Counted from the first letter of the stretch, positions 2,737-46,884 are shown. The stretch is 64,000 nt of DNA from Candidatus Multivoradales bacterium (GCA_965248925.1 CBDFLE010000005.1:2048001-2112000); one strand, 5' to 3'. A program made the numbers and translations. The notes: a model not told the origin generated them from the sequence alone.

Positions 2737-3189
2737 TCAGGTAGTGTTGCCGTCCAACAAACGCACTTGCAAGCTGTCGTCCGCCGGTCGCCGCTGCAGG
2801 ATCTGGCGCATCTTCTGGTCAGCTTGATCGCGACTGGCATAGACGCCGATACGAACAACGTAGAGCACGCTGGCGTCGCCTTGCTCAACTTGCACGATTG
2901 ACGGCGAGAACGATCCCAGCTCACGCTGGCGGGCAGCCGCGTTCTGCCAGTCCGAGTAGGCGCCGGCCTGGATGGTGAAATCACCACTAATCGACGGATC
3001 GAGGCCCGACCAGGCGGCGATCGGCAAAGCCTGTACCGGTGAAGAGCTGGTGGTCTCGGCGGGCAACAAGGTGCGCTCGACATAATGCTGCCCGATCAAG
3101 AAGCCACCGGTGAACAGCACCGCACTGCCCAGCAGCAGGCCTACCGTGACCCTTGCCAAGGATCGCTTGTCGAAGACGAAGGCGTACAT
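2737..3189 (-). CDS. Membrane-anchored SPOR-domain (peptidoglycan-binding) protein
   Basis: N-terminal TM helix VTVGLLLGSAVLFTGGFLIG; C-terminal FTIQAGAYSDWQNA...LYVVRIGVYASRDQA is typical of SPOR. Confidence 0.85.
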   Translation of the reverse strand: MYAFVFDKRSLARVTVGLLLGSAVLFTGGFLIGQHYVERTLLPAETTSSSPVQALPIAAWSGLDPSISGDFTIQAGAYSDWQNAAARQRELGSFSPSIVQVEQGDASVLYVVRIGVYASRDQADQKMRQILQRRPADDSLQVRLLDGNTT

Positions 3190-3635
3190 TCAGGATACTC
3201 GCACTTGGAAAAATCTATCGCTATTTCCCTATATACAGCGAATTCTCCCCACCAGGGAAGATCAGCTAGCGACGGACCGAAAGCCGGTGAAATCAGCGGC
3301 ATAGCACTCCGCGAACTGAACCAACATAGCGCAGCATTGTAGAGCATCTGGCCGCCGACGCCTAATAGACCAGCAACCTTCGCCGTCCCTCACGAGTCTT
3401 ACCGTGGATTCGAGCCTCCCCCGCGGTCCGCTCTCCAACATGAGGATTGAAGCCCGAAGAGTAGATCGAGGAGTCTCAATATCTTGGAGATTGGACCACT
3501 AGAAGTTCTTGAGATACACCTTTAATAGCAAACTCCACTGTGAATGCCAACATATTCGCAACTACCGTCACGCCAAGGGCGCTGTGTAGGTTCTCAGAAG
3601 AATCTACAAAAAAGGCCCAAACACGCTCCATGCCC

Positions 3636-3665
3636 TTGACGAGATTCGTTGCTAAGTAGGATACT
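3636..3665 (+). promoter_or_regulatory. Candidate sigma70-type promoter of the eCIS operon
   Basis: TTGACG (3636-3641), 18-bp spacer, GATACT (3660-3665), ~130 bp upstream of the sheath start; GGAGG RBS precedes ATG 3798. Confidence 0.4.
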
Positions 3666-3691
3666 CGCCCACCTATTCATAGGTAGGCGAG
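3664..3691. promoter_or_regulatory. Inverted repeat (operator or leader hairpin) upstream of the sheath gene
   Basis: CTCGCC-C-ACCTAT-TC-ATAGGT-A-GGCGAG: 13-bp arms with one mismatch. Confidence 0.55.
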
Positions 3692-3797
3692 CAATCCTGA
3701 AGTGCTGGCGAGAGTTCTCGCATAGGCAACTCGGTGGGTGAGACGGGCGGATGGAAACTGGTACTAGGGATCCTCACTAAACGTCTTTGGAGGACCC

Positions 3798-6700: not shown

Positions 6701-6836
6701 GACCTGCGACGGCACCACGACCACGCCGGTCGACATCGAACTCGGCATGGTCAATATCGATGTCGGCGTTGCACCGGTCAAGCCGGCGGAATTCGTCGTC
6801 CTCAGAATGCAACAGATCGCTCAGGCCGCCGCCTGA
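3798..6836 (+). CDS. eCIS contractile tail sheath protein with ~500 aa Ala-rich insertion
   Basis: N-terminal YPGVYVQEIPGG...YFLNGGQEAWIVR; C-terminal RTDTARGVWKAPAG, WGARTL, WKYISVRRL, WAVFEPN, APVKPAEFVVLR are sheath signatures. Confidence 0.96.
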   Translation: MPIRVSYPGVYVQEIPGGQPVTAGVSTASTAFIDFFSRGPMEKAKQVFSMAEVNRSFGGLHLRSEASYGLKQYFLNGGQEAWIVRATDGTAIKALLDVKVNTPGLDVRFQWATDSADAADKAQQAAKRAAEKAKDALTALAAAVNDQQRTQGGGDLRSATTESADETYKATAATRAAAEQAKASSDELAIAIAALAAASGPVADRTAQAAEHTAQAAAASSDAAKTTPAVIAAAQKAVEVAKKGLSAGQSSRTAQTAAKTLADLQTAVDAAKAAIATVTAEETAVTDAGDNLVASKGAAYNAAVAAEDAVAQADTAAREALSVAKTVYEHHKAAGNDDDAKAAKEDVDAASDSEQITTLATAANAAAEAQLDSQTIMETADATAAATKAKGAADQAKSVIDKVETIAAKGLTSVLTMASEAADTSATLAVKEGDGTVGEAVKAANKEILKANAAAKAALVACKLTSDDAKVAASCVGSAKVNLDARGAIAGAEKAAADTIETLKAAKVITAQLNKALILALDSTKPAVESAAAATAAGGNADLSINEKIKAAAAAAQAALNAANNCVAAAEAVEKAATEVSRVALQATTAADLAARAAKVAVAANKEASQPPTLRIAAANEGIWGDNIQVEIKVDGANFSLVVTEYLTERGVTRQVGQENYSSLNLEKGENTYAIPVVNDQSDLVSLDYIGLMVSGAYPADIDGEFLNGGDDGGHADATQLTGADGAMSALEDIQPYIFNLLSLPSVANMPAAEASVATANAQVYCGEKRAFYIVDIPEIVDDTDKMLEWVNSYGNAQAYYMAVYYPRLVIPDPLQDFRERNVGPSGTLAGIYSRTDTARGVWKAPAGINAVLQGAQVSSKVTDIQNGLLNPRGVNVLRTFPIYGNISWGARTLAGADALSSEWKYISVRRLVNYIEESLFQSLKWAVFEPNNDVLWAKIRSQIATFLSSLFSQGAFQGAGEGSAYFVTCDGTTTTPVDIELGMVNIDVGVAPVKPAEFVVLRMQQIAQAAA

Positions 6837-6870
6837 TCTCGGATCCAAGAAAACCAAGGAGGTTTTATCA

Positions 6871-7455
6871 ATGGGTACTCCCAAGAACCTACGTTCGACC
6901 ATCATGGATCCGCTGCTGAACTTCAAGTTCATTGTCAGCTGGGGCGAGGCCGGTTCGGCGAAATACGAAGTAGTCGCCGGGGTGAGCAAGTTCGGCCCGC
7001 TGTCGCGCAACACGGAAGTTGCCGAATACCGCGAAGGTGCCGATCCCTTTGTCACTCGTAAGATCCCAGGGCAGGTGAAATACGACGACATCAACCTCGA
7101 GCGCGGCATTATTCTCGATGTCGCCTTCGAGCAGTGGGCCAATAAGGTTTGGTACTACGAGCAGTCCGACGCCCTGGCCTCCAACCAGGTGTCGCTGATC
7201 GACTTCCGCAAGGACGTGCAGATTCAGCTCTGCAACCAGGCCGGCCAGATCGTCAACCAATACCTGATCTTCAATTGTTGGCCCACCAAATACCAGGCGG
7301 CGCCCGATCTCGACGCTTCGGCTGGCAACACGGTGGCGCTCGAAACCTTGACCTTGGCCAACGAAGGCTGGGTCCGTGACGACACCTACAAGGCCGTCAA
7401 GTATCCGACCTACGCCTTGCCGGATTCGCCAACAGGTGGCTTGCCACCCTCCTGA
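6871..7455 (+). CDS. eCIS tail tube protein (gp19/Afp1-like)
   Basis: DPLLNFKFIV, EYREG, RKIPGQVKYDDINLERG, CWPTKY...LDA...VALETLTLANEG; start reassigned to ATG 6871 behind AAGGAGG. Confidence 0.95.
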   Translation: MGTPKNLRSTIMDPLLNFKFIVSWGEAGSAKYEVVAGVSKFGPLSRNTEVAEYREGADPFVTRKIPGQVKYDDINLERGIILDVAFEQWANKVWYYEQSDALASNQVSLIDFRKDVQIQLCNQAGQIVNQYLIFNCWPTKYQAAPDLDASAGNTVALETLTLANEGWVRDDTYKAVKYPTYALPDSPTGGLPPS

Positions 7456-7460
7456 TCCAT

Positions 7461-8207
7461 ATGCACGCCCTCACCGCCCAAGAAGCGCTGGCGGCTTGGG
7501 AAAGAGGCCAGCGACTCGACCCTCTGGGCCGATCGCTGGCCTTTCTTTCGGTCGCCCTGCCGGCCGTCGAGCGCCTACGCATTCTGCAGCTGCCGGTAGG
7601 GCAGCGCGACGCTCTGCTACTGCGCTTGCGTTTCCGCACTTTTGGGCCGGGTCTGCGAGGTTCGGTCAACTGTCCATCCTGCAACGTACCGCTGGAGTTC
7701 GCAGTCGATCTGCGTAGCTACGACGCGATCGGCCACCTACAACGAGAGATCGGCGCCCGCGAGCTGGTCGTCGAGCCCTACCGAGTGGTCTTCCGCCTAC
7801 CCAACAGTGAGGACTTTTCCGCCATCGCCGAGGGCTGCGTCGACGCCGAGAGTGGCCGCGAAGTCCTGCTCGACCGCTGCCTGCTGCACGCCTTCGAAGG
7901 CAATCAGGAAATCGCGCCGCAGCAGCTCCCCGCCGAAGTTTTGGCTCAGGTCGCCGCTGAAATGGAGAGTCTCGATCCTCTCGCCGAGCTACCGTTGGCG
8001 ATCGATTGCGGCCGTTGCGATCACTCCTCCCTGGTGCTCTTCGACATCGGCCAGTTTCTTTGGCATGACATAGCCGCCTCCGCCAGAAGCCTGCTCGAAG
8101 AAGTCCACGCCTTGGCCACCGCCTACGGCTGGGGCGAAGAGCAGATTCTCAACCTGAGCGGGGCGCGCCGCCGCTTTTACATCGAAAAGATCCCAGCCGG
8201 GAGCTGA
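7461..8207 (+). CDS. eCIS baseplate hub-assembly/chaperone-like protein (T4 gp26-like, two CxxC)
   Basis: LPVGQRDALLLRLR, CPSC, FRLPNSED, CGRC, C-terminal EVHALATAYGWGEEQILNLSGARRRFY; usual position after the tube gene. Confidence 0.8.
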   Translation: MHALTAQEALAAWERGQRLDPLGRSLAFLSVALPAVERLRILQLPVGQRDALLLRLRFRTFGPGLRGSVNCPSCNVPLEFAVDLRSYDAIGHLQREIGARELVVEPYRVVFRLPNSEDFSAIAEGCVDAESGREVLLDRCLLHAFEGNQEIAPQQLPAEVLAQVAAEMESLDPLAELPLAIDCGRCDHSSLVLFDIGQFLWHDIAASARSLLEEVHALATAYGWGEEQILNLSGARRRFYIEKIPAGS

Positions 8208-8212
8208 AAGCA

Positions 8213-14625
<6,413 letters not shown>

Positions 14626-14629
<4 letters not shown>

Positions 14630-15921
14630 GCGACTATCGAGCCATCGCGGCTACCACCGTCACGCTGCAAAACATGCTTACCGAAGCGATTCGCGAGGTG
14701 GTGCCCGGAGCCGCTGTCGCCACCGGCACACCGCCCGCGAAGACCGGTCATGAACTCACCGAGGGGCTGATCAATATCTTCCTCTACAAGGTCGAACCCA
14801 ACCCGACTTGGCGCAACGAGGAATTGCCGGTACGCGCCGCCGACGGCAGCTGGATCCGCCGGCCGCAACTGGCGATCAACTTGTTCTTCTTGTTGTCGTT
14901 CTATGGCGATGACGTGAAGCAGATCCCTTCCCTGTTACTCGGTACAACTCTGGCGACCCTGCATGCAGAACCCTATCCCCACCGGCGGCATTTCCCCCAA
15001 GCACGCCCAGACGGTCCAGGGCACAGCAGCTTTATCGACGGCAGTCCCAACCTGGCGGGCTCTGGGCTGCTCAACCAACGCCACGGCCTGTCGTTTTCCT
15101 TGCTGTCCTCCGAGCAAGACGAAGTCATCCAGACCTGGACGCAGCTGCTGCACCAGTCCTACACCCTGTCGGTAGCCTATGTCGCTCGGGTGGTGTTGAT
15201 CGAGCCGGCGGTGGTGCCAGCCGCGGCGTTGCCGGCGCGCCGCACCGATGTTCGCTTTAGCAGCACGCGACAACCGCGCCTAGAGAGCCTGGCTCCAGCC
15301 ATCTTGCCTTTCGCCCCCGCCGCCGAACTGCGGCTGCGCGGCCAAGGACTGACCGCCGAGCATGTGCGAGTCGCTTTCGGCGGCATCGAAGTCGAACCCC
15401 TGATGCGCTCAGCGACCGAGCTGCGAGTGCTGCTCCCAGACCAGCTGCAAGCCGGCGCGCAACCGGTCAACGTGGTCCACGGCGAACAACGGGACGATGG
15501 CCCGCTGCGTTGGAGCATCGCCTCCAATCAACTTTCGGTGGTCATCCAACCAGTGCTGCTGGGGGCCGCTTGGCGAGCCCAGACTTCCGACCCGGCCCCC
15601 ACCACCACCACGGGCTCCACCAGGACTAGCGGCACCATCGAAGTGCAGATGGCGCCGCCAGCCACCGCCCCGACTGATGTCGAGCTACTGCTCAACGCCA
15701 CCCCACCCTCCAACCGCGCGGCAGCACCGCCGGGCTATGTTTTCGCAGCCACGGTCGACCCGTCCCGCCCCGATCGAGTCGACTTCGTGGTGACCGCACC
15801 CCCGGGCCGCTATCTGGCGCGTATCAGGGTGCTCGGCGCAGACAGCCCTTTGACCGTCGACAAAGATCCGTCAAGTCCGAATTACCAACGCTTTGTGGGC
15901 CCCATCGTGGAAATCGGCTGA
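14626..15921 (+). CDS. DUF4255 / Pvc16-Afp16-like cap (sheath terminator) protein with IPT-like C-terminal domains
   Basis: MSDYRAIAATTVTLQNML, INIFLYKVEPNPTWRN, YTLSVAYVARVVLIE; located before the ATPase. Confidence 0.88.
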
Positions 15922-17900
15922 TGGCGGACCTATTCACCAGCATCTTGACCGAGGTTCGCTCGGCGCTTCAGCGACACGCCGAGAACGCGCCCTCGGAGAG
16001 CACCGAAACAGCTGCCGCAGACACCGCCGCAAACACAACTCCGGCACCAGCCACAAGCGCCGACGACAGTCAAGTTTCGAGGTTGCGGCAGCTCAGCCAG
16101 CTGTTCGAACTATCTGACTTCGAAGTGCGTGTGCTGGTGCTCTGTGCCGGCCTCGAGCTGGACTCCTCTTTCGCACCACTCTGCGCCAAGGCACAGGTCG
16201 ACCCTAAACGCGCCTACCCTACTTTCGGCCTCGCCATGGCGACTCTGCCGGGAGCGCAATGGCAAGCTCTGCTGCCACAAGCACCGCTGCGCGCCTGGCA
16301 GCTGTTGCGACCCGCCACCGGCGAACCCCTGACCGCCGCCGAGCTGCGTATCGACGAACAGATCCTGCACTACCTTATGGGTTTCGACAGCCAGCCCAAG
16401 GCCCTGGCGCCGCTGATCGAACCGGTGCTAGAGGATCAGCTCGACCTGGTGGCATCGCACCGGCGGCAGGCTGATTTGATCATCTCCACCTGGCGCCAGA
16501 CCCGGGGCAGTAGCGAGTTTCCGGTGGTCGAGCTGCGGGGCGACAACCACGCCGCCAAACGGCCGATTGCCGCCTTGGCCTGCCAACAACTCGACCTGCG
16601 CCTGCAGGCCATCGCCGCCGAATCTCTACCCACTCAGCCCGAGGAACTTGAATCCCTGCTCCGCCTGTGGCACCGCGAAGCACTGCTCGATGGCGCAGCT
16701 CTGCTGGTCGAAGCCGACCAGCTACGACCCGACGATGCCCGCGAGCCGGTGCTGCGCAGCTTTCTCGACCGCAGCCGCACCGCCATGCTGGTTACCCGCC
16801 GCGGTCGCCTGGCCCTCCGCCACCGAGCACTACTCAGCCTTCCAGTCGAGAAGCCCCAACGGCAGGAACAACGCAGCCTTTGGCAGCGCCTGGGAGAAGC
16901 CCGTGGGATCTCACTCGACCCTCAGCAGCGCGTCGCCTTGGCCGATCAATTTCACCTCGGTGCGAAGGAGATTCGCAGCATCTGGGTCGAGGCCCTCGGC
17001 CGGCTACCGAGCGACGGCGAGACTATCGATCAACAGCAGCTGGTGGCAGCGCTGTGGCAAACATGCCGCCAACAGGCACGGCCGGCCCTGGAGGATCTCG
17101 CCGAACATGTAGAACCCAAGGCTACTTGGGACGAGCTGGTGCTGCCCGAGCCGCAGCTCCAGACCCTGCGCCAGATCTCCATTCACTTGCGCCAACGAAG
17201 CACCGTGCACGACAGTTGGGGCTTCTCCAGCAAGAGTTCGCGTGGCCTCGGAATTCATGCTCTGTTCAGCGGCTCCAGCGGCACCGGCAAAACGATGGCC
17301 GCCGAAGTGCTGGCTGGCGACCTCGGCCTCGATCTGTTCCGCATCGACCTGTCGTCGGTGATCAGCAAATACATTGGCGAAACCGAAAAGAACCTCGAGC
17401 GGGTCTTCACCGCCGCCGAAGCCGGCGGTAGCATCTTGCTGTTCGACGAAGCCGACGCCCTCTTCGGTCGCCGCGGCGAGGTCAGCGACAGCCACGACCG
17501 CTATGCCAACATCGAAGTCAGCTACCTGCTGCAACGCATCGAGACCTATCGCGGACTGGCCATCTTGACCACCAACTTGCGCGGCTCCCTGGACAGCGCT
17601 TTTCAGCGGCGGCTCGAATTCATCGTCGAATTCCCCTTTCCGACCCCAGTCGAGCGGGCGGCTATCTGGGCTAGGGTATTCCCCGCCAAAACGCCGACAG
17701 ACAACCTGCATCTTGATCGCCTGGCGCGACTCAACTTGAGCGGAGGCCATATCCGAAATATTGCCCTGAATGGCGCTTTTCTGGCCGCCAAAGACTGCGC
17801 TCCTGTTAACATGAAGCATCTGCTGATTGCCACCCGTCGGGAACTGGCCAAATTGAACCGGCCGCTGCCTGAGACCGAAGTCCAGGATTGGTTGACATGA
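15921..17900 (+). CDS. eCIS AAA+ ATPase (Afp15/Pvc15-like)
   Basis: Walker A GSSGTGKT, SKYIGETEKNL, Walker B LLFDEADALFG, DRYANIEVSYLLQR. Confidence 0.96.
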   Translation: MADLFTSILTEVRSALQRHAENAPSESTETAAADTAANTTPAPATSADDSQVSRLRQLSQLFELSDFEVRVLVLCAGLELDSSFAPLCAKAQVDPKRAYPTFGLAMATLPGAQWQALLPQAPLRAWQLLRPATGEPLTAAELRIDEQILHYLMGFDSQPKALAPLIEPVLEDQLDLVASHRRQADLIISTWRQTRGSSEFPVVELRGDNHAAKRPIAALACQQLDLRLQAIAAESLPTQPEELESLLRLWHREALLDGAALLVEADQLRPDDAREPVLRSFLDRSRTAMLVTRRGRLALRHRALLSLPVEKPQRQEQRSLWQRLGEARGISLDPQQRVALADQFHLGAKEIRSIWVEALGRLPSDGETIDQQQLVAALWQTCRQQARPALEDLAEHVEPKATWDELVLPEPQLQTLRQISIHLRQRSTVHDSWGFSSKSSRGLGIHALFSGSSGTGKTMAAEVLAGDLGLDLFRIDLSSVISKYIGETEKNLERVFTAAEAGGSILLFDEADALFGRRGEVSDSHDRYANIEVSYLLQRIETYRGLAILTTNLRGSLDSAFQRRLEFIVEFPFPTPVERAAIWARVFPAKTPTDNLHLDRLARLNLSGGHIRNIALNGAFLAAKDCAPVNMKHLLIATRRELAKLNRPLPETEVQDWLT

Positions 17901-18223
17901 AAATCGATCTAGAAATCGACCACTTGCGCCTTCCGACCGCCGCCGGCTTGCGCGGCGAGGATCTGGCCACCGCTATCGAGAGCGAGCTCGACCGGCTGAG
18001 CGAAATCTACGGTTTGCCCGCTTATGGTAGCAATGCAGGCGGGGTCGATATTGACCTGGCGTCGTTCCCGATCAACCCTCACGCTTCCATCGACCAACTC
18101 GGCGCCTCGATCGCCCGCTCGCTGATGCAGGGTTTGCATCAGAAGAGCGGCCGGGTTCCGCGAGAACTCGACAGAGGCCCTGACGCGCCCCACGATACTT
18201 CCTCCAACGAGGTAGTGCGATGA
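17897..18223 (+). CDS. Small eCIS-associated hypothetical protein
   Basis: MKIDLEIDHLRL...AIESELDRL...LGASIARSL; ATGA overlaps on both sides. Confidence 0.7.
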   Translation: MKIDLEIDHLRLPTAAGLRGEDLATAIESELDRLSEIYGLPAYGSNAGGVDIDLASFPINPHASIDQLGASIARSLMQGLHQKSGRVPRELDRGPDAPHDTSSNEVVR

Positions 18224-37603: not shown

Positions 37604-38293
37604 TCAAGGCTCGCGTACCTTCGCCCCGTTTTGCTGCACCACATGGGTGAGTTCGTGGGCCAGCAACTGCTGGCCACTGGCAGAACCGGGACGATACTCG
37701 CCCTGGCGAAAGAAGATGTCCTGACCGGTGGTGAAGGCTCGCGCTTCGAGCGAGCGGTTGAGCTGATCGGCCTTGCCATCGGCATGGACCTTGACGCCGC
37801 TGAAGTCGGCGCCGAAGGCTGACTCCATCGAGGAACGCAGGGGAACATCGAGCGCCCGGCCGCCGCTACGCTGGCTGTCGATCGAGGATTCGAGGCTACT
37901 GTCGATGGCTCCGCCTGCTTGCAAGGAGGAGGCACGTTGCAAATACTTCGGCTGGGCGGTGGCGGCCGGGGCGTCGCTAATCTCCGCCTCTTCGACCGCC
38001 GGCGCAGCCAGGCTGGTCATCACTTGCTGCGCCACCTGATCGGCTTCGCGCTCGTAGGCGTCGGCGGCCGGGCCAAGGGTTAGCTTGGGCTGGATGGTGC
38101 CCCTGTCGACCCGCAGCCGGTGGCCGAGCACCTTGGCGCGGGCCAACTGCAGATCGATGTCCGCCGCCGTCCGCTCCGCCAGCGGCCGCGGTGCCAGCGG
38201 CCGCGGTGCCACCCGAGTCGGGCCGGACGGAGCCAGCGTGGACTGATCCTTGCTGCCTGTGACTCGATTTTGCCCTAGTCGATCTGTTCGCAT
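37604..38293 (-). CDS. DUF4157 (eCIS core domain) protein
   Basis: IQPKLTLG..DAYEREADQVA, MESAFGADFSGVKVH, ARAFTTGQDIFF, LLAHELTHVVQQ (HExxH); start reassigned to ATG 38293 with GAGGA RBS. Confidence 0.93.
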   Translation of the reverse strand: MRTDRLGQNRVTGSKDQSTLAPSGPTRVAPRPLAPRPLAERTAADIDLQLARAKVLGHRLRVDRGTIQPKLTLGPAADAYEREADQVAQQVMTSLAAPAVEEAEISDAPAATAQPKYLQRASSLQAGGAIDSSLESSIDSQRSGGRALDVPLRSSMESAFGADFSGVKVHADGKADQLNRSLEARAFTTGQDIFFRQGEYRPGSASGQQLLAHELTHVVQQNGAKVREP

Positions 38294-38405
38294 GTGAATC
38301 CTCGGAGCCATCTTACCGCATCTTTGGGAGCCTACCGGGCCGCTCGCCAACCGGCGCCTGATATCCTGAGCGCGGCGCCCCCACCACCGACCGCAGGAGA
38401 CAGCG

Positions 38406-38792
38406 ATGGGTAGTCCAGCAGCCCGCCTGGGCGATATGGTTTTGCAGGATGCTCCGCATTGCCATGCGCCGATCCACCCCCCGGCCCTGGTTCCCACCGC
38501 GGTGCCGCATCCGGCGTTACCACTAGCGATCATCAAGGGCGCGCCCACGGTCATGATCGGTGGCCAACCAGCCGCCCGCGTGACCGATCAAACCGCCCCC
38601 TGCGTGCTGCCCAGCTGCGTGCCCAACGGGCCGGGAATGATCGCCAAAGGCTCGGCAACGGTGATGATCGGCGGCCTGCCGGCGGCGCGGATCAACGATA
38701 TGACCGCTCACGCTACTTGTGTCGCGCCCATCCCCAGCCCCACCGGCAAGATTCTGCCCCCCGGCTGTCCGACGGTGATGATCGGCGGCTAG
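38406..38792 (+). CDS. PAAR-repeat spike tip protein
   Basis: Three PAAR motifs (SPAARLGD, QPAARVTD, LPAARIND) with TVMIGG repeats and His/Cys ligands. Confidence 0.95.
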   Translation: MGSPAARLGDMVLQDAPHCHAPIHPPALVPTAVPHPALPLAIIKGAPTVMIGGQPAARVTDQTAPCVLPSCVPNGPGMIAKGSATVMIGGLPAARINDMTAHATCVAPIPSPTGKILPPGCPTVMIGG

Positions 38793-38801
38793 GAGCCGGT
38801 C

Positions 38802-41800
38802 TCACCAAGTGCCCAGGCTGACCTCGACGGGGAAATCAGCCGGTTGCAGAGTCTCGGGCAACGGCACCCTGACCGCTTGTCCGTCGCTGCCCAGCAGCCG
38901 CACGCGGATGAACACCCGCGCCTCGCGATCCGGCCGTGGCGGCGGCGGGGTCGGGGGTGGCGACGGTTTATTCCACGGCCAGTGCCACTGTCTCTTGGCG
39001 ACCGTCTGGGTCGACGGCTCGGCGCCCACCTTGATCGTCGGGATGAACAGCTCCAGGATGTCCGGGCAGATACCCGGAGTCGGCGATTGGTGACTGCCTA
39101 GCAGGGTGAGCAAAGCCCAGTTGTTCTGGTAGTCAAAGGTCACCGTCTTGCCGACCACCGGCGGCCCGCCGGGCTGATCGTAGGGCTCGCGCGGGGCGTC
39201 CTGGGCCCAGCCGAGCAGCAGCTTGACCGGCTGTCCCTGGACCCATTCCGTCGGCACTTCCTGGCTGCCGTCCGGCACTTTCTGGCCATTCACTTCGACC
39301 GCCCAGCGAATAATCTGGTTGGCGTCGACTTCGCGTTGCTGCCGCTGCATGCGGTAGTCGACCTCCAGCGGGAAGGAAAGCGCCGATTGCGGACCTTTGA
39401 CCAAGGCCAGCAGATAGGGGTCGAAGAAATCTCGCAACGTCGCCAACGAGGCCATGAAATCGCACAACCCGAGTAAGCCCTTGGCTCCCCGCAGCGGCTT
39501 GGCGGCGGTGCTCAGACAGGAGCACAACCGCGCCAAGGAAACTTCCGCCGAAGCCGCCGTGGCCGTGCTCGAGACAGCGGTGCCCAACGAGCCCCCACAG
39601 GCCGCGGCTGGCGCGGCGCTGTTGAGACAATCACTGAGTTTCTTGAAATCAAAACCGCGCTGCGGCTGGCTGGCGGCCCGCCGGAGGAAACTGTCGACCG
39701 CGGCGCGGTGATCGTCGTAGATCTTCAAGAAACTGACCACGTCTTTGCGACTGGCCTGACTCTGACCGGTCTTGAAGTCGGCGGTGAAGGGATACTTGCC
39801 CTCCAGCCCGCCGCTGAAGGCTTGGCGAATGCTGGCATAGGAGCTGCGGGCCAGCTCCACGCCGAGCCGCGAACAGCGCTGTTCGAGGGCATCGGTGAGA
39901 TCGCCGCCACGACTCAAGAAGTAGTCGCAGGGTAGGTTTCGCAAGCTGACTGGCGTTGCCAGCGAGAAGCACTTCCGTGGCTCGAGCGCCGCGAGGCAGC
40001 TCGAACCATCGACCGTCATCATTGTCTGAGTCACCAGCTCGCGCAGGCTGGCGGCCGCGCTATTGGGCTTGTCGTTGGCCAGGTCTTGAAGATCGCTTTG
40101 GATGAGCTGGAAGCGGCGTTGGTTCTGATCGTGGTTGAAGCAATTCGACGAACTCTTCGCGCCGAGCAGCGCTTGCGTGTAAGTCTCGTCGAGCTTCTGC
40201 ACCAGGGCCAACCAGGTGGTGAAGTTGCTCGCCGCGGCGTCGGTATCGGCGAAGGAAAAGAGCGTCCGCGCCGGTCCGGTCGAGCCGTCCCAGCTGGCCA
40301 GTAGGCCGGCGTCGACCCGGTAGGGATAGTAGGCGTCGAGCATCCGCTTCATCATCTGGAAGATATATTCGCGCTGATATTCGACGACCTTCTTCAGCTG
40401 ACACCAGGCACTTTCCGGTTGCCAAAGACAATTCTTGCAGGTCACCGGGTCGGGCAGGGTCTCTTGTAGCCGGACTTGAAGCAACACCAGATCATCGCTG
40501 TTGGCCAGGAAGGCGGTGGCGATGCGTTCGAGATGGTCTGCCAGTTGGTCGTTGCTGTCCAGGGCGGGCTGGCGCAGAATCTCCTGCCCAAACTCGAGAA
40601 TGCTCAACACGTAGTTGGCGAGCTCGGTCAGCGCGGTTTGCGAGTGCATCACCTCTACCCCTTGAGGATCGTCGTCGAGAGCTTTGATCGAGCTGTCGTA
40701 CTCGCTGAAGGCACCCACCGCTCGCCGCAGACTGTCCGCGCGCCAACTCAGGTATTCGTCATCGCCGGCTAGCAGCAGCCGACCTCCGCCCTGCTTACCG
40801 CTGAACGGCTGGCTGAGGAATTCTTGCAAACTGCGACGAAGCTGCTGCAGGGGGGCAGAGAGCACGAAACGGCCACTGTCCGGCGACCGCTCGAGCAGCG
40901 GACCGATGTCCGATCGCGGCGCCACTAACGCGGATTGGAGAGTGGTAAACCCCTCGTTGCCAAGGGTCGCTAGTTCTCGCCGCATGTCGACACCGAGGAA
41001 ACGTGACTTGCCCATAGCTCGCCACCAACGGTCGTATTGCAACCCCAGATCGAGGCTCTTGCCATGCACCCAATTAAGCCCGACATCCTCCAAAGACAGG
41101 TCGACCGTTTCGATCCAGAACAGGAGTCTGGCCGCTGCATTGGCCAACGCCTCGGGATCGATTTGGGCCCCGGATCCCGCCGCGCCAGAGCCGCCGACGG
41201 CGCCTAAGAAACCCGCGCCCGAAAGACCACCGGCACCACCGTCCAGGCTGCTGGCAAGAATCCCACTGCCCGCGTCCGCAGCGGTCCAAGCAACGGCGGA
41301 TCCAGAGGGCGCCGCGATAGTTACCTGATTAATTTCTTTATCTAACTTATCCAAGGCGAGCACCAGCGCGTTGTGTTCAAACAAGGTGTCGAACATCCAG
41401 CGGCTGAGCTGCCGGGTCTTGGCTTGCAGCTTCGGGGCGTATTCCTCGACCTGGTATTCATCCACCTTGACCTGCCGCAGAACTCGCCGAACAAACTGCT
41501 GGGTGATCGCATTGGGCGGTTCGAAACGCTCGCCGTAGAGATCCTGTTCCAATCGGTAGATACCTCCCGGTGAACCGCACAGGAGACCTTGGGGGACAAA
41601 GCAATCATAGATCCGCAAGCTATTTTCGACCCGGCCAAGTTTGGCGCTCAGCTGCTCGAGCAGAGTGAACTCAGGTACTGTCTCGACTCCCAGCACCGGT
41701 ACTTGGGGCGACAATTGCCGGGTCGGTTTGGTGGCCAGCTGGTCGAGGCCGTTGCCCAGCGCTCGCCGTGCTGCCGGGAAAGTATTCTTGCTGTACAGCT

Positions 41801-43319
41801 GGGCAAAGCTGCGGCGTAACTCACGATCCGCCGGCCAAGGCACGGGGGGGAAACCCAGGGAGTAGGCGCTGATTTTCTGCCGCGACTCGCGCAGCTGGTG
41901 GGCAATCTCATCGCTGTTCAACAAGCCCCCGCCAAGGCCGATTTCGATCGGGTCGAGCAGACCAGCTAGCACTTTGGCGCGAGCCGGGATCTGTTGGGTC
42001 ACGTTCCACAGCAGCCACGACAAGGACAAGAGAGTCACCACCAGCAGAGAACGCAGCACCGTCACTAGGCGGCGGCGGCGACGAAGTGCCCGAGCGGTCG
42101 GCCGCGCCAGATTCCACTCATAGAGAATCTTGGCTCTAAACAAATCGTGCAGAAAGTCGACCCGCCGGTGGTCCTCGCCGGCCGTCTTCAGCCGCGGCGG
42201 CGCGGAGGTCTCATCGGGCGACTCGCTGCTCGATGGGGTCGGGAAACCGCGACCGCCGCAGAAGTACACCCCGCGCAGCACCGCCGGCTCTTCGGCGGAG
42301 CCGCCAGCAAAAATCTGGTTGAGGACGATGGCGAGAGGCTCTTGCAGCCGGCACAAGGCCGCTGGAAAGGCGGTCAGGCGGCGCTCGCCAGCAGTCGAGC
42401 GGCGCTCAGTAAGGGCGCGAAGTTGGGCCAGACAGAGCGCCCGCTGGGTGCTGCTGAAGACCCTGTCGACCCAGCTTGGCGAATAGGGTTTGTCGAATGC
42501 GCCCGGCGCCGACCAACCGAAGGTCTCGCGGCGCAGCTCGGGATCGAGCAACTCGACAAAGTCGCCATAGCCCTCAACCAGGTCGCATTGGCTCACCAGC
42601 ACGAACACTGGCAAACGTAGCCCCAAGGTCGCTTGGGCGTCGAGCAACTTGCGCCGTAGCACGCTGGCCCGCGCCGCGAGATTCTCCTGCGCCCAGGTGT
42701 CATCTGCCGCCACGCCGAGAAACTCGCGCGCCGAAAGAACTAACAGGATGCCATCGGCGGGATGCTCGGTGCGGTAGCGCTTGAGCAGTTGGAGAAAACC
42801 ACGCCAAGCTAGCTGGCTCGACTCAGTGCCCTCGGCGCGAAGCGTCAAGTCGCCGGCCAGATCGGCGGCGACGGCGCGGTCGAACAACCACCAATTGCAG
42901 CCCGATGGGGCCGTGTCGGGGATCTCGCCAGGCTCTCCCAGGGGCAGCACTAGGCCGCTCTGGCCAAGCAAGGTGGTCTTGCCTGAAGCCGTTGGCCCGA
43001 GGGTCAGCAGCCAGGGGGTGCGATAGCTCGATCGGGCGCCGGGCAGCATCTGCCGCAGCAGCTTGCGCACCTGCTTGAACGAACGCCGCAGAGGCGCGCT
43101 CTTGGTGCCCGAACGCCAATCGACCACCGTAGCGCTAGCGTCCTCTTGCAGCTCCTCCCAGCGCGACGAGGCATCGCCGGGGACCGCCCGCGCCACCCGG
43201 TTGGCACGGGCCAAGCGTCGACCGACTTCCAACGCCAGCAGCAGGAATGCGATCGCCAACCCACCGAGCAAGAATGGCAACATGCCCGCTGCATCGATCG
43301 TAGGTTCGAGATCGTTCAT
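38802..43319 (-). CDS. tssM: T6SS membrane complex TssM/IcmF-like protein
   Basis: N-terminal TM; PWLLTLGPTASGKTTLL (Walker A), CNWWLFDRAV, LPVFVLVSQCDLVEGY, LRGVYFCG, second TM, long periplasmic part ending YQNNWALLTLL. Confidence 0.88.
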   Translation of the reverse strand: MNDLEPTIDAAGMLPFLLGGLAIAFLLLALEVGRRLARANRVARAVPGDASSRWEELQEDASATVVDWRSGTKSAPLRRSFKQVRKLLRQMLPGARSSYRTPWLLTLGPTASGKTTLLGQSGLVLPLGEPGEIPDTAPSGCNWWLFDRAVAADLAGDLTLRAEGTESSQLAWRGFLQLLKRYRTEHPADGILLVLSAREFLGVAADDTWAQENLAARASVLRRKLLDAQATLGLRLPVFVLVSQCDLVEGYGDFVELLDPELRRETFGWSAPGAFDKPYSPSWVDRVFSSTQRALCLAQLRALTERRSTAGERRLTAFPAALCRLQEPLAIVLNQIFAGGSAEEPAVLRGVYFCGGRGFPTPSSSESPDETSAPPRLKTAGEDHRRVDFLHDLFRAKILYEWNLARPTARALRRRRRLVTVLRSLLVVTLLSLSWLLWNVTQQIPARAKVLAGLLDPIEIGLGGGLLNSDEIAHQLRESRQKISAYSLGFPPVPWPADRELRRSFAQLYSKNTFPAARRALGNGLDQLATKPTRQLSPQVPVLGVETVPEFTLLEQLSAKLGRVENSLRIYDCFVPQGLLCGSPGGIYRLEQDLYGERFEPPNAITQQFVRRVLRQVKVDEYQVEEYAPKLQAKTRQLSRWMFDTLFEHNALVLALDKLDKEINQVTIAAPSGSAVAWTAADAGSGILASSLDGGAGGLSGAGFLGAVGGSGAAGSGAQIDPEALANAAARLLFWIETVDLSLEDVGLNWVHGKSLDLGLQYDRWWRAMGKSRFLGVDMRRELATLGNEGFTTLQSALVAPRSDIGPLLERSPDSGRFVLSAPLQQLRRSLQEFLSQPFSGKQGGGRLLLAGDDEYLSWRADSLRRAVGAFSEYDSSIKALDDDPQGVEVMHSQTALTELANYVLSILEFGQEILRQPALDSNDQLADHLERIATAFLANSDDLVLLQVRLQETLPDPVTCKNCLWQPESAWCQLKKVVEYQREYIFQMMKRMLDAYYPYRVDAGLLASWDGSTGPARTLFSFADTDAAASNFTTWLALVQKLDETYTQALLGAKSSSNCFNHDQNQRRFQLIQSDLQDLANDKPNSAAASLRELVTQTMMTVDGSSCLAALEPRKCFSLATPVSLRNLPCDYFLSRGGDLTDALEQRCSRLGVELARSSYASIRQAFSGGLEGKYPFTADFKTGQSQASRKDVVSFLKIYDDHRAAVDSFLRRAASQPQRGFDFKKLSDCLNSAAPAAACGGSLGTAVSSTATAASAEVSLARLCSCLSTAAKPLRGAKGLLGLCDFMASLATLRDFFDPYLLALVKGPQSALSFPLEVDYRMQRQQREVDANQIIRWAVEVNGQKVPDGSQEVPTEWVQGQPVKLLLGWAQDAPREPYDQPGGPPVVGKTVTFDYQNNWALLTLLGSHQSPTPGICPDILELFIPTIKVGAEPSTQTVAKRQWHWPWNKPSPPPTPPPPRPDREARVFIRVRLLGSDGQAVRVPLPETLQPADFPVEVSLGTW

Positions 43320-44032
43320 CCGGTGTAGTGCTCCCGAATCGCGGCGATGGCTTCAAAGACGTCAGAGATACCGCCCCACCACAGCGGCAAAGTGGTCATC
43401 AGCAGCAAAAACAGCGCAACCCCAAGCGCGATCCACCAGGGACGGGCATTGGCGATCGACTGCGCCCGGCCGCGCAGCTGCTGACGCCGATAGGCAGCCG
43501 GAAAGAGATGCTCAGGCTCAGCCTGGAGCTGCGGAAACTGAGCGCTCAACACCAGCAGCAAACGCGACGCCGAATCCTCCTCCGCTTCTACTCCGCTGAC
43601 CAACGCTAGCAAGTAGAGCTGCACCAGATCGGCACTCGGCTGGTCTTCTTCGAGCAACTCGTCGATCTGCGCGGCGAACTCCGCGGCGACGCCATCGGCC
43701 GGCGGATAGGATTCGCGCAGCGGCGGCCAAACGCTGTCACCGTCCCACGGCAGCGGATCGAGAACCGCATCGACGGTGCGGGCCATGAGGTGTTGCGCCT
43801 GCTGGAAGAGGACCGTCTCGGGATCGTAGCCGGCTGGCCGCGCATCGATTTTCTGCCGTGCCAGCGCCGCTTCCAACTCGTCTTTCACCGCCGCCGGCAG
43901 GGTGCGCTGCGGGTCCTCGCCACGAGTGATCGCCGCCCTCTCGGCAGCCAGACGCCGCTCGGTTTCGAGACTGAGATCGAGCAGGCGGCGAAAGGCAAGC
44001 TGGAGAAATGAGTCGGCTGCCGGCGGCTTCAT
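43316..44032 (-). CDS. tssL: TssL/DotU-like inner membrane protein (divergent)
   Basis: AQHLMARTVDAVL..LPW, LVQLYLLALVSG, LFPAAY, single C-terminal TM; ATGA-coupled to tssM; ATG 44032 with GGAG RBS. Confidence 0.7.
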   Translation of the reverse strand: MKPPAADSFLQLAFRRLLDLSLETERRLAAERAAITRGEDPQRTLPAAVKDELEAALARQKIDARPAGYDPETVLFQQAQHLMARTVDAVLDPLPWDGDSVWPPLRESYPPADGVAAEFAAQIDELLEEDQPSADLVQLYLLALVSGVEAEEDSASRLLLVLSAQFPQLQAEPEHLFPAAYRRQQLRGRAQSIANARPWWIALGVALFLLLMTTLPLWWGGISDVFEAIAAIREHYTG

Positions 44033-44092
44033 CCCCAATACTCCGAATGTCCGGCCCGGACTTGAAGACTTCGCACGAGTTTCAACAAACTC

Positions 44093-44572
44093 CTAACGCA
44101 GCACGGTAGTAAATTTTGCTTCGCCGAGTTGCAGCAGCAAGCTGCGATTCGGTGCGAAGCGGCGGCGATGGTCCCCTTCAGCCTCGTAGGCAGCGAAGAG
44201 AAAAGCCGCAACGGCACCGCGGCGATAGCCGAAACGCTGCTCTGGCACCGCCTGACCCGGAGTCCACTCCCAGCTCTTGAAGGTCAGCAGCTGGGAATCC
44301 TCGCTCAACTGTGCCCGCTTGCTGAACCACTGCACCGAGGTGTAGCCGCTCAACGATTTGTCGAGATCCTCGTCATAGACGATCACTAGGTCGACCGCCA
44401 CCGGCGCGTCGCCATTGAGCTGATCGTCGACCTCCACGCCGAGGAAGCTATAGCCACCGAGGATCTGACCACCCCCCAGGGGCAAGGCGCCCTTGACTAA
44501 GCTACAGCCGGCCAGCAGCGAGCCCAGCAGCACCAGTCCGGCTGCCAGACTTGGTCGCGCGAACCCGCTCAT
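44093..44572 (-). CDS. tssJ: TssJ/SciN-like outer membrane lipoprotein
   Basis: Lipobox LLAGC; QLNGDAPVAVDLVIVYD, WEWTPGQ, FLFAAY...GDHR; upstream of tssL-tssM. Confidence 0.75.
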   Translation of the reverse strand: MSGFARPSLAAGLVLLGSLLAGCSLVKGALPLGGGQILGGYSFLGVEVDDQLNGDAPVAVDLVIVYDEDLDKSLSGYTSVQWFSKRAQLSEDSQLLTFKSWEWTPGQAVPEQRFGYRRGAVAAFLFAAYEAEGDHRRRFAPNRSLLLQLGEAKFTTVLR

Positions 44573-46884
44573 GGCGGTGGCCCCCCTTGGCAGGCCGAGT
44601 TGGTGGGTTGCAGAGTGAAGGCATTCGGCAACGTGTCGGTACAGCCGGTGTCGAGGTGCAGCACGCGGACATCGACACTGGTCGGCAACAGCTGAAATCC
44701 GTCCGTGTCGCTATCGATGGCGCAAGTGACCTGAGCCAAGAAGGTATCGTCGACCGCGGGAGTCAACACCTGAATCTGGCCGCTGTTGACGCTGACCACC
44801 TGGGCTGCCGCCTCTTGAGCGCCAGAGAGGAAAGTCACCCGCGCCGGTGTGACAAAGGAACTGCCACTCACCAACAGCAACAGATTCCCGATCTGCGCAC
44901 CGCTACTCGGTGAGACGCTAGTCAATAGCGGCAGCTCAACGGTGTAGCTGAAGGTCAGATCGCCGGTGCCCGAATCACCGCTATTGATATTGGTGACCTT
45001 GAGCCCTTGCTGAGGCAGGCGCCCATCGTCGGGACAGGCGCCAACCGCCACTCCGACCGTAGTGAAACTGATTTCTATGCTGTTTTTGAAAACCTCGCCG
45101 CTTTGGCGGATGCCACCCAGCTCGACCGTCACCGGGTCGGTGAAACCGCTGCCCAGCACCTTGATAGTGCTACCGCCGGTGTAAACGCCCTGACTGGGAA
45201 CGATGGCGCTGACCACCACTGGATCGGCCGGTGCTTCCGCCTGATAGGTGTAACCACCCGCCAGGGTCACCGCTTGCTCCCCCGCGGCAGGGAAAATGGT
45301 CACCGCCACATCCACCGCTCGCAACTCCCCTAGCATCAGAGCGGGTGCCGGCTGCGGCACCGTCACAGTGATCTTGGTCGAGTTGACGAAGGTCGGTGAA
45401 ACTCCAGCAATACCACCAAAATCCACTCGCAGCGGGCTCTCGAAGCCACTGCCGACGATGCTGACTTGCTCGCCGCCATTGGCATCGCCGACGCTCGGCT
45501 GCACCTCCTGGATACCGAGTACGCTGTCGGGCACGTAGCGGAAAGCGCCGGGCAGCACGGTAGATCGCGGCTCAGCGTCGTCCAGCGCGTTGACCAGGGT
45601 CACATCGACCACCGAGGCGGCGCTGGGATCGGTCGCGGGCGGCGTCACCACGGTAACTCTGCCAGTCGATTCTACTTTTGCCGACAACCCGACCTGATCA
45701 CCGAACTGCACCCTGACCGGCGCCTCGAAGCCGCCGCCGCTCAAAGTCACTTTGTTGCCACCGTCGACGGTGCCGGACGGAGGATCGATAGCACTCAGAA
45801 ACAGCGCCGGCACCGCATCCGGGGTATAGGTAAAGGCGCCAGCCAAGGTCACCGACGGCGGCGCGGCCTGGTCGAGAGCGTTGACCAGGGTCACATCGAC
45901 GGTCTCGACCGCGGTCGGATCCATCGCACCGGGAGTGGTGACCCTGATCACGCTGGCCGACTCGACCACCGCGTTCTGCCCCGCGCGACCGCCGAAATCG
46001 ACCTGGATCGGCGCTGCGAACCCCCCCCCATGCAAGATCACCCGATCGCCCCCGGCAACATTGCCAGCGGCTGGCGTGACCTCGAGCAAAAACAGCGGCG
46101 GCGGCGCTTCCGGCGAGTAGGTAAAGCCGCCAGCCAAGGTCGTCGTCCGCGGATTCGGCCGATCCAAGGCGGTGGTGATGAATACATCCACCGCCAGCGT
46201 CTCCCCCGTCGCCACCGGAGTTACCGAGGCCGGCGTCTCGACCACCAAAGCGGTTTCCGAACTCACCTCGACCACCGTCGCCTCGACACTACCGAAACGC
46301 ACTTGCAGCGGCTGGCGGAAGCCCTCGCCTTGGATCATCACTTGGTCGCCGCCCTCCGGCACTCCACTGGCCGGCACCAGCGCCGCAATCGCCAGGGTGG
46401 TCTCGACCACCTCGATCGCCAGCTGGCCGACCGCGCCGCCCACCTGGGCCAGCACGGTGGCGGTACCGAGGTCCGTACCGGGCAGCAGATTGACCGACGC
46501 CACGCCCGAGACTAGCTCTAAGTTGACCAGCTGCACCGCGTTGCCTTGGGCATCGGCACCGAAGTTTCCCAGGTTGGTGTTGATCGTCACCATGGTGCCA
46601 TCTGGTGGCGGCTGCTGATCACTGGTCTGGCTAACCGTCACCGAAATCGCACTGAACTCCGTCGAACCGGCCTCCAGGCGGGTCGGATCAGCGGCCAGGG
46701 TGACGGTGACGCTCTGCGTACCGCCACCACCACCGCCGCCATTGGTGGGTGCTTTCGGCGCCACTGGATTGCTGGAATCACAAGCCAGCCAGGCAGCCAC
46801 CAGGGTGATAGCCGGCAACCAGAGCCAGCGCCGCCAGCGCGGCCGCTGACGGCCGGCATCGAAGCTACGGGCTGACTCGCTCAT
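44569..46884 (-). CDS. Lipoprotein with Ig-like domain and six IPT/TIG repeats
   Basis: Lipobox-like WLAC; six PxxGxxxG(G)xxVxIxGxGF-type repeats; ATGA overlaps with both neighbours. Confidence 0.85.
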   Translation of the reverse strand: MSESARSFDAGRQRPRWRRWLWLPAITLVAAWLACDSSNPVAPKAPTNGGGGGGGTQSVTVTLAADPTRLEAGSTEFSAISVTVSQTSDQQPPPDGTMVTINTNLGNFGADAQGNAVQLVNLELVSGVASVNLLPGTDLGTATVLAQVGGAVGQLAIEVVETTLAIAALVPASGVPEGGDQVMIQGEGFRQPLQVRFGSVEATVVEVSSETALVVETPASVTPVATGETLAVDVFITTALDRPNPRTTTLAGGFTYSPEAPPPLFLLEVTPAAGNVAGGDRVILHGGGFAAPIQVDFGGRAGQNAVVESASVIRVTTPGAMDPTAVETVDVTLVNALDQAAPPSVTLAGAFTYTPDAVPALFLSAIDPPSGTVDGGNKVTLSGGGFEAPVRVQFGDQVGLSAKVESTGRVTVVTPPATDPSAASVVDVTLVNALDDAEPRSTVLPGAFRYVPDSVLGIQEVQPSVGDANGGEQVSIVGSGFESPLRVDFGGIAGVSPTFVNSTKITVTVPQPAPALMLGELRAVDVAVTIFPAAGEQAVTLAGGYTYQAEAPADPVVVSAIVPSQGVYTGGSTIKVLGSGFTDPVTVELGGIRQSGEVFKNSIEISFTTVGVAVGACPDDGRLPQQGLKVTNINSGDSGTGDLTFSYTVELPLLTSVSPSSGAQIGNLLLLVSGSSFVTPARVTFLSGAQEAAAQVVSVNSGQIQVLTPAVDDTFLAQVTCAIDSDTDGFQLLPTSVDVRVLHLDTGCTDTLPNAFTLQPTNSACQGGPPP

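Follow-up and report, generated by a model that had tools for sequence, protein, structure and literature searches.

An eCIS-type contractile injection operon beside a TssK-less TssJLM membrane complex in an order of the Thermoanaerobaculia

Examination of a 64,000-nucleotide stretch of the genome of Candidatus Multivoradales bacterium (GCA_965248925.1, CBDFLE010000005.1:2048001-2112000; G000:C5:2048001-2112000 in our coding; hereafter the window) revealed a complete operon of the lineage of extracellular contractile injection systems (eCIS) and, convergent to it, an operon encoding homologues of TssJ, TssL and TssM, the membrane complex (MC) of type VI secretion systems (T6SS), without the gene tssK. 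The host (7.98 Mb in 6 contigs, 96.9% complete) belongs to an order within the Thermoanaerobaculia, Acidobacteriota, and the pairing of the TssK-less membrane complex with this lineage of contractile injection system (CIS) is conserved and old within this one order. The sequences suggest that what is new is the combination of modules in a contractile injection system, an eCIS-type tail together with TssJLM and without TssK. Related genomes and loci are referred to by G and L codes, G000 being the genome of the window.

Regarding the tail, the operon on the plus strand (3798-33601; Table 1) is confirmed as a complete Afp/PVC-type, eCIS-lineage contractile injection operon, as the original prediction had it. 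Pfam scans of 38 window proteins recovered the eCIS gene set of sheath, tube, terminator, ATPase, gp25, gp6/J and spike, with the PAAR gene 4.8 kb past the last operon gene, and the nearest solved sheaths are those of CIS/eCIS (Pvc2, Afp2-4, All3325, 7adz, 8bky, 8bl4, 7b5h), not TssBC. The sheath is about twice the usual length and has about 500 extra residues (about 100-610) without a family match; the full 1012-amino acid (aa) form is common only to G008 (57% identity over the full length), while the remaining linked loci encode shorter sheaths or, as in G242, a pair of them, and the insert was therefore rejected as a lineage marker. Since the match to the gp19 family starts only at residue 54, translation of the tube gene probably begins downstream of the listed ATG. 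The 2138-aa protein following the tube-like genes is assigned to the tape-measure position by its place between tube and terminator alone; it has no Pfam match except a low-complexity one, conservation in relatives is confined to its first ~68 residues, and it shows a strong compositional skew and a His-rich low-complexity stretch at about residues 1501-1569. The CIS tube-like protein is conserved in all related CIS loci. The insert of the enlarged Baseplate_J protein resembles the BNR glycosyl hydrolase 3b7f, and the last CIS gene encodes the DUF6519 protein, of which an AF2 model of the N-terminal 720 aa (pLDDT 88.5) gave Foldseek matches to LamG/pentraxin folds. No transmembrane (TM) segments were found in the six CIS proteins scanned, and Pfam detected no capsid, portal or terminase families among the 38 window proteins, hence no head or packaging genes.

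The tssJ-tssL-tssM operon (38802-44572) lies on the minus strand, convergent to the CIS operon and without tssK. An eCIS as counted in the published censuses has no T6SS membrane-complex genes nearby; here the distance from the last operon gene to tssJ, tssL and tssM is 5.2-11 kb. The predicted PAAR and tssM-, tssL- and tssJ-like genes about 5 kb from the operon are borne out by Pfam and by the fold of TssJ. Against the NCBIfam TssM equivalog model, the TssM-like protein scores 205.8 (cut-off 388) over its N-terminal part only, and the C-terminal TssM families were undetected by Pfam. Its predicted topology comprises a TM segment (12-30), a cytoplasmic P-loop domain (GPTASGKTT), a second TM segment (418-436) and a periplasmic part of ~1070 aa, and residues 730-1210 and 1283-1490 align with TssM of TssK-bearing clusters. 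It is the single IcmF_N match in its own genome; a word-indexed homologue search with residues 450-1505 returned only the query itself, and TssM relatives were found only by six-frame genome searches. The tail-anchored TssL-like protein scores 24.4 bits against its NCBIfam model (cut-off 89.95 bits), and a 12-sequence alignment keeps the C-terminal TM segment.

The 159-aa lipoprotein encoded upstream of tssL has no sequence-family match in Pfam, NCBIfam or a profile search, and sequence searches of solved structures with TssM alone, a TssM profile and a TssJ profile returned no TssM or TssJ chains; TssJ was recognised only by its fold. The AF2 model (pLDDT 85.6) gave a Foldseek top 10 consisting entirely of TssJ chains, including 3zhn, 4a1r, 6ixh, 3rx9 and 4y7o_C (probability 1.00; TMt 0.59-0.67), and the lipobox cysteine is invariant in 15/15 homologues. 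As components of a class i T6SS (T6SS-i), TssJ is thus identified by lipobox, fold and positional orthology, and TssL and TssM by Pfam, both under their NCBIfam cut-offs. The gap between tssJ and tssL is 54 bp from the listed TTG start and 60 bp, the predicted distance, from an in-frame ATG two codons inward (MKPP).

In three loci of other Acidobacteriota (L036, L038 and L040) the gene order is tssJ-tssK-tssL-tssM, with homologues of the window genes flanking TssK; a TssJ homologue of 39% identity fills the tssJ slot of L038 and L040, where TssA, Hcp, TssE, TssF and TssG come after tssM. Because their homologues sit in these tssJ-K-L-M clusters, the tssJ, tssL and tssM genes of the window descend from a genuine T6SS membrane complex.

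Table 1. Features of the window, in order of position (bits are family scores; residue numbers refer to the protein).
Feature	Position	Strand	Basis
SPOR protein, membrane-anchored	2737-3189	-	Pfam SPOR 36.5 bits; TM 14-32; N-terminal MYAFVFDKRSL motif
Contractile sheath, 1012 aa	3798-6836	+	Phage_sheath_1C (Pfam)
Inner tube, gp19 family	6760-7455	+	Phage_T4_gp19 123.5 bits
Second tube-like / baseplate-hub-like protein	7461-8207	+	T4_baseplate 40.1 bits; phrog_150 baseplate hub
2138-aa protein, tape-measure position	8213-14629	+	Position only, between tube and terminator
Tail terminator/cap, Pvc16/Afp16 type	14626-15921	+	Pvc16_N 105.1 bits
eCIS AAA+ ATPase, Afp15 type	15921-17900	+	WHD and AAA (Pfam)
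111-aa protein	17888-18223	+	No Pfam, NCBIfam or PHROG match; 42% identical homologue in the same place in G008
CIS tube-like protein (tube initiator)	18220-18918	+	CIS_tube 18.6 bits, below cut-off
Spike complex, GPD hub	19226-20416	+	Phage_GPD 18.9 bits, below cut-off
Spike complex, Phage_base_V spike	20426-21277	+	87.8 bits
Baseplate wedge gp25	21286-21678	+	Pfam
Baseplate wedge, gp6-like	21666-24266	+	Pfam
Baseplate_J, 1260 aa, enlarged	24263-28045	+	Pfam; BNR beta-propeller insert ~220-680
Tail_P2_I baseplate protein	28042-30138	+	Tail_P2_I 21.5 bits
DUF6519 (eBAP5) fibre-like protein, 1149 aa, LamG insert, C-terminal Kelch propeller	30152-33601	+	DUF6519 193 bits and Kelch
UPF0175 antitoxin-like protein	33765-34064
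DUF3368 PIN-like protein	34057-34542
Pentapeptide-repeat protein, 665 aa	35591-37588	-	Pentapeptide 405 bits
DUF4157 protein (eCIS_core, HExxH), stand-alone	37604-38554	-	eCIS_core 113.5 bits, residues 235-311
PAAR spike tip	38406-38792	+	PAAR_motif 71.9 bits
TssM-like protein, 1505 aa	38802-43319	-	IcmF-related_N 158.9 bits, cut-off 25 (Pfam)
TssL/DotU-like protein, tail-anchored	43316-44038	-	DotU 34.2 bits, cut-off 27; TM 201-219
TssJ outer-membrane lipoprotein, 159 aa	44093-44572	-	Lipobox LLAGC; TssJ fold
TIG lipoprotein, six IPT/TIG domains	44569-46884	-	TIG 142.8 bits; lipobox
FadL/TodX-family outer-membrane beta-barrel	46881-48227	-	Toluene_X 137.9 bits
Class I S-adenosylmethionine (SAM) methyltransferase	48213-49292	+	Methyltransf_25/11
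Two serine beta-lactamase-family genes	54388-60794
Beta-lactamase-family protein fused to glycoside hydrolase family 3 domain, 956 aa	57924-60794

Family searches of the whole genome gave 0 matches each for TssA, TssB, TssC, TssF, TssG, TssK and Hcp (ClpV, PF12790 TssJ and DotU were not searched genome-wide), and the E. coli control was recovered every time; no T6SS tail genes were seen in the 64-kb window either, as originally predicted. The T6SS-i tail (TssB/TssC, Hcp, TssF/TssG and TssA) is therefore without a match in this genome, the connector TssK is found neither in the genome nor in the tssJ-tssL gap, and the locus encodes a single ATPase, which belongs to the eCIS Afp15 type (ClpV not searched). 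TssK is also absent from this type of locus in 18 further genomes. That tssJLM serves a normal T6SS tail encoded elsewhere, or consists of decaying pseudogenes, is barely credible in the light of these seven empty searches and of the genes themselves: the long TssM frames are all open, with no internal stops despite 23-46% identity, and the TssJ lipobox cysteine does not vary. What such a tail could hide behind is a genome that is not closed at 96.9% completeness, and a ClpV gene outside the searches. A second sheath-C gene lies about 150 kb upstream (G000:C5 ~1888000-1900400; L061, L062), in a cluster that has a weak tail-assembly-chaperone match, a 1152-aa protein and a 1446-aa NHL-repeat protein; it was rejected as a hidden T6SS tail for want of similarity to the window CIS proteins and for its phage-tail-like neighbours, and the cluster looks like a prophage tail or tailocin.

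Investigation of related genomes revealed the same arrangement repeatedly. In a first sample of 41 genomes (40 relatives and the window genome), TssM-like proteins were present in 14/41, TssK in 7/41 and Pvc16_N in 23/41; the seven TssM-positive genomes without TssK were the window genome and its six best-scoring relatives, and in the other seven TssK was found 2-3 kb from tssM. Across the 300 genomes of the order, TssM was detected in at least 58, TssK in 43 and Pvc16_N in 112, the TssM tallies being floors since that search used E<=1e-20 with a stricter first look. TssM without TssK was recorded in 19 genomes before curation, which removed G550 (a 4.7-kb contig bearing tssM and then tssA, in a genome 74% complete) and added G547, which has a second, TssK-less locus on another contig; 19 genomes with a TssK-less locus, from four families (f1, f3, f5 and f7), thus remained. 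When 401 genomes were sampled across the class, TssM unaccompanied by TssK turned up in just four, G000, G008, G038 and G242, which all belong to this order.

Comparison of the fetched contigs with the window proteins by tblastn showed that the TssK-less tssJLM genes lie next to a CIS in 10/11 assessable loci from the four families, so that the linkage proposed by the original prediction holds in relatives. The last CIS gene, encoding DUF6519, is 0.2-10 kb from tssM, and in all 10 adjacent loci the two genes are convergent (gaps: G000, 5.2 kb; G010, 9.5 kb; G038, 7.8 kb; G015, 1.4 kb; G577/L032, <=1.8 kb; G543/L037, 2.4 kb; G242/L048, 3.2 kb; G498, 6.7 kb; G547, 0.2 kb; G548, 0.26 kb). Eight loci with contig ends <=7 kb from tssM (G002, G022, G458, G501, G540, G541, G542 and G604) are outside this count. 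Among the Pvc16 matches listed, with 29 weaker ones outside that list, TssK-bearing loci that share a contig with such a match are separated from it by 59 kb or more (G588, 59 kb; G581, 61 kb; G573, 147 kb; the rest >400 kb).

The CIS found beside the membrane complex is moreover of one particular lineage. When the Baseplate_J insert was used as query in the family of the window genome (n=24), strong matches (157-344 bits, and the query itself) were obtained only in G000, G002, G008, G010, G015 and G022, which are exactly the 6/24 genomes with TssK-less tssJLM, the other 18 giving <=63 bits; the TssM-less relatives G016, G024 and G009 have a CIS of the same gene order without the insert (~220-675) and without the Kelch domain. 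In a Tail_P2_I tree, 8 MC-linked and 3 MC-less CIS are split with support of 100, and in a near-full-length TssM tree, built from tblastn pieces, 11 TssK-less sequences are split from 2 canonical ones with support of 98. The pairs G010 with G038 and G543 with G242 recur in both trees, and deeper nodes are unresolved in both. An N-terminal TssM tree of 35 rows groups 14 TssK-less rows (SH-aLRT 86), and this group neighbours canonical acidobacterial TssM within an acidobacterial clade whose support is 100. This pattern fits a single old capture followed by co-inheritance.

Mere neighbourhood without a shared mechanism, in which tssJLM would be the leftover of a lost T6SS with some other envelope function, co-travelling with the CIS on inherited or mobile DNA, appears improbable. 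Such an explanation would accommodate G008, in which a tssJ-DUF4157-tssL-tssM block lies at least 20 kb from any CIS gene in the middle of a 52-kb contig, as well as the unrelated genes, among them the window's toxin-antitoxin pair, that fill intervals of as much as 10 kb, and the commonness of CIS in the order anyway (112/300 genomes, and 26/43 of those bearing TssK). It does less well with an adjacency kept in 10/11 assessable loci across four families at a TssM identity of 23-46%, or with the exact co-occurrence with one CIS lineage in the 24 family genomes, and mere co-transfer does not predict that genes are interleaved differently between the modules in each genome.

This interleaving takes several forms. 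In G010 and G038 the CIS operon ends in genes for DUF6519, PAAR and a methyltransferase on one strand, the PAAR being 82-83% identical to that of the window and placed directly after the DUF6519 gene, and the methyltransferase, directly after PAAR, being 53-54% identical; in the window the block from tssM to the FadL-like gene sits exactly between PAAR and methyltransferase, and the membrane-complex module is therefore inside the CIS gene set. The FadL-like and methyltransferase genes belong to the conserved neighbourhood, which extends past position 46884. In L032 the space between DUF4157 and tssL is taken by an AAA+ gene (6899-8863) with 57% identity to the CIS ATPase; the contig ends too early to show whether the CIS operon has a copy too. 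A DUF4157 gene is situated between tssJ and tssL in G008, L030 and L032, the slot of tssK in canonical clusters, and in G008, which has the closest relative of the window sheath, homologues of the FadL-like, TIG and SPOR genes are found directly upstream of the sheath gene.

These envelope genes differ in their distribution. The SPOR gene was predicted, and is found, to be divergent from the sheath gene, and is a conserved member of the set: a custom hidden Markov model detected homologues in 7 related loci (E 1e-36 to 1e-70), which share the MY-F-FD-RSL motif, the TM segment and the SPOR domain and are placed in one of two ways, divergently from the sheath gene (G008, G022) or within the FadL/tssJ module (G010, G038, L032, L033, G498). 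No SPOR homologue was found in the canonical T6SS loci L036, L038 and L040 or in the CIS loci of the three TssM-less relatives, and the protein is a candidate peptidoglycan anchor of the system. FadL-like homologues (38-46% identity) occur in G010, G038, L032, L033, G498 and G547, as well as in G008, and were not seen in the same three canonical loci. Homologues of the TIG lipoprotein adjoin tssJ both in canonical L038 and L040 and in CIS-linked loci. Judged from gene order and co-occurrence, the CIS and TssJLM modules are very probably coupled functionally.

TssJLM has one known role, in which it holds a contractile tail in place and forms a trans-envelope channel, with TssK providing the link to the baseplate (PMC10781749). 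The reading favoured here, to which we assign a probability of about one half, is that the eCIS-type tail works together with the T6SS-derived envelope complex as a composite machine for anchored firing; it is favoured because TssJLM has long been kept intact in genomes that offer it no matching tail but the adjacent CIS. The tail would consist of sheath, tube, tape-measure-position protein, terminator, AAA+ ATPase, spike, PAAR, baseplate and the fibre-like DUF6519 protein, and the envelope complex of TssJ, TssL and TssM with the TIG lipoprotein, the FadL-like barrel and the SPOR protein, the last tying the complex to peptidoglycan. The tail would be assembled in the cytoplasm and its baseplate would dock on the cytoplasmic parts of TssL and TssM, TssK being replaced by lineage-specific baseplate additions, for which the DUF6519-LamG-Kelch protein carried by Tail_P2_I and/or the BNR insert of Baseplate_J are candidates. 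Contraction would then drive tube, spike and PAAR through the TssJLM channel into a neighbouring cell, and cargo would be marked by having DUF4157 as its neighbour, the cargo in the window then being the pentapeptide-repeat protein. More tentatively, the system could represent a further class of type VI-like secretion, in which a fixed-length tail of eCIS lineage docks on and fires through TssJLM without TssK and uses its own fibre or baseplate additions as the connector. The original observation is confirmed, and its interpretation, a tail docking on TssJLM by another adaptor or an export function of TssJLM, is partly supported; the two genomic conditions originally named for its refutation, a T6SS tail locus elsewhere and a lack of linkage in relatives, both came out in its favour.

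As to the connector, DUF6519 is classed as a fibre baseplate-anchor domain, eBAP5, and Tail_P2_I is said to resemble TssG and the related eBAP3 fibres TssK, in PMC12923769. The DUF6519 protein is a natural candidate connector because of this class, of the likeness between eBAP3 and TssK and of a gene that always faces tssM. DUF6519 as a relative of TssK was rejected, the comparisons given below being null, and the idea of a TssK analogue goes back solely to the eBAP3 statement in PMC12923769. In the protein atlas DUF6519 gave a weak lead to phage DUF4815 (0.81, below the 0.9 level). Complex prediction with TssM(31-417), TssL(1-198) and the DUF6519 Kelch domain (800-1149) scored 0.00 in a run without controls, and weighs neither way. 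DUF6519 proteins were also noted in Myxococcota, Kelch-ended in Archangium and NHL/lactonase-ended in Myxococcus.

Several observations weigh against an anchored machine with DUF6519 as its connector. Alignments of DUF6519 (63 sequences) and TssK (15 sequences) gave an hhalign probability of 0.1, and no TssK was among the Foldseek top 50 of the N-terminal 720-aa DUF6519 model, in which the LamG insert dominates. At their C-termini, DUF6519 proteins from elsewhere end in many kinds of domain (Kelch, beta-helix, NHL, BNR), a trait of receptor-binding fibres, and in L037, one of the linked loci, the DUF6519 protein is short and lacks Kelch. Hallmarks of eCIS persist in the tail, namely the tape-measure-position, terminator and LamG/Kelch fibre-like proteins, for which an anchored machine has no obvious need, and docking of tail on membrane complex is what we infer from gene content. 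The tssJLM block of G008 is separate from its CIS, and G547 has, on separate contigs (L081 on G547:C136, and G547:C420), both a canonical T6SS and its TssK-less locus; two kinds of membrane complex can thus coexist in one genome. The sampled genomes are, moreover, related, and the counts are not independent trials.

Some of these points recur if the particle is a true eCIS acting outside the cell via its LamG/Kelch fibres, with TssJLM and the FadL-like, TIG and SPOR proteins re-purposed for exit of the particle or its cargo (e.g., local envelope opening without full lysis) or as a membrane assembly station. This seems rather doubtful to us, yet the eCIS gene set is full, tape-measure-position, terminator and fibre-like genes included; scanning of window genes brought out no lysis cassette; the FadL-like and SPOR additions did not turn up in the three canonical T6SS loci inspected; and DUF6519, with its variable C-terminal binding domains, is described as a tail-fibre anchor in PMC12923769. 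The conserved cytoplasmic P-loop domain of TssM and the cytoplasmic TssL fit instead a docking partner in the cytoplasm. No TssJLM is known to us that lets through an object broader than an Hcp-type tube, whose width a baseplate exceeds several-fold. Linkage does not tell exit or assembly apart from anchored firing, and the particle export by TssJLM that was originally offered as an alternative found no support beyond the gene linkage.

Regarding known systems, the window shares with T6SS-i the proteins TssJ (by fold), TssL and TssM, the order tssJ-tssL-tssM and a TIG lipoprotein that is also present in L038 and L040; it differs in having no TssK between tssJ and tssL and no genome-wide matches to TssA/B/C/F/G/Hcp, in that the tail beside its complex is of eCIS lineage only, and in the FadL-like and SPOR proteins as extra partners. 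With eCIS such as Afp, PVC and AlgoCIS it has operon content and order in common, including Pvc16_N, CIS_tube, DUF4157, DUF6519 and the AAA+ ATPase; those, however, exist by definition as free particles and have no membrane complex, whereas TssJLM genes are conserved here beside the operon and, in the window, lie inside it. T6SS-iv (Amoebophilus-type) has an eCIS-related tail anchored in the cell and, to our knowledge, no TssJ/L/M homologues; it is a precedent for an eCIS-related tail as a cell-anchored machine, whereas anchoring of the window tail is something that we infer. The origin of T6SS-iv is independent of classes i-iii, and T6SS-iii of Bacteroidota combines a T6SS-type tail with an unrelated TssNQOPR membrane complex, docked via TssK, as stated in PMC10781749. 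As in T6SS-iii, tail and membrane complex appear to be exchangeable modules, but the window would be the reverse swap, the canonical membrane complex being kept with another tail lineage and no TssK. The sheath is most similar to a broad group including 8bky, 8bl4 and 7b5h, which we take to be CIS sheaths of Streptomyces/Anabaena-type systems; those cytoplasmic or thylakoid-anchored CIS have, as far as we know, membrane adaptors of their own or none, and no TssJLM.

Contractile injection systems are sorted into free eCIS and envelope-anchored T6SS, and the presence of TssJLM is the dividing line. Of two eCIS censuses, one drops any locus in which T6SS COGs such as TssM occur within 10 kb (PMC8213781), and in the other 18 clusters containing T6SS Pfams were taken out by hand (PMC12923769); a lineage with an eCIS tail and TssJLM falls into the blind spot left by this deletion of loci with T6SS neighbours. 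A full-text search, which did not cover subscription papers, found no published description of an eCIS-type tail with TssJLM, and the census exclusion lists may hold such loci. If the tail uses the complex, it would be a natural experiment on how a baseplate docks on TssL/TssM without TssK, would bear on the origin of TssK from fibre-like proteins and on the modular evolution of secretion machines, and could be a weapon or interaction system in the Acidobacteriota, an abundant soil phylum. Should it indeed form a TssK-less class, the T6SS membrane complex and contractile tails would be interchangeable both ways, and the eCIS and type VI branches could recombine. If the complex serves particle release instead, it would address how eCIS leave Gram-negative cells.

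Among the remaining genes of the neighbourhood, relatives of the stand-alone DUF4157 protein align from about residue 131, and the 5' part of its open reading frame overlaps the PAAR gene on the opposite strand; translation probably starts well within the listed frame. The pentapeptide-repeat gene starts 16 bp past the DUF4157 stop. Its presence was correctly predicted, its role as a conserved Tag-type accessory was not, and was rejected, no homologue being found in any related locus compared. DUF4157 genes flank eCIS toxins, according to Geller et al. (PMC8213781), and the pentapeptide-repeat protein, being without homologues in related loci and following the DUF4157 gene, is probably a variable cargo or effector.

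Genes for a UPF0175 antitoxin-like and a DUF3368 PIN-like protein, situated between the DUF6519 gene and the DUF4157/pentapeptide pair, overlap and form a toxin-antitoxin pair that is absent from related loci, and a gene encoding a 214-aa protein without a known family is found downstream of it. Further along the window, the two serine beta-lactamase-family genes flank a sodium:solute symporter gene, one of them being fused to a glycoside hydrolase family 3 domain; they look like genes of cell-wall recycling rather than resistance, and appear unrelated to the pairing of CIS and TssJLM.

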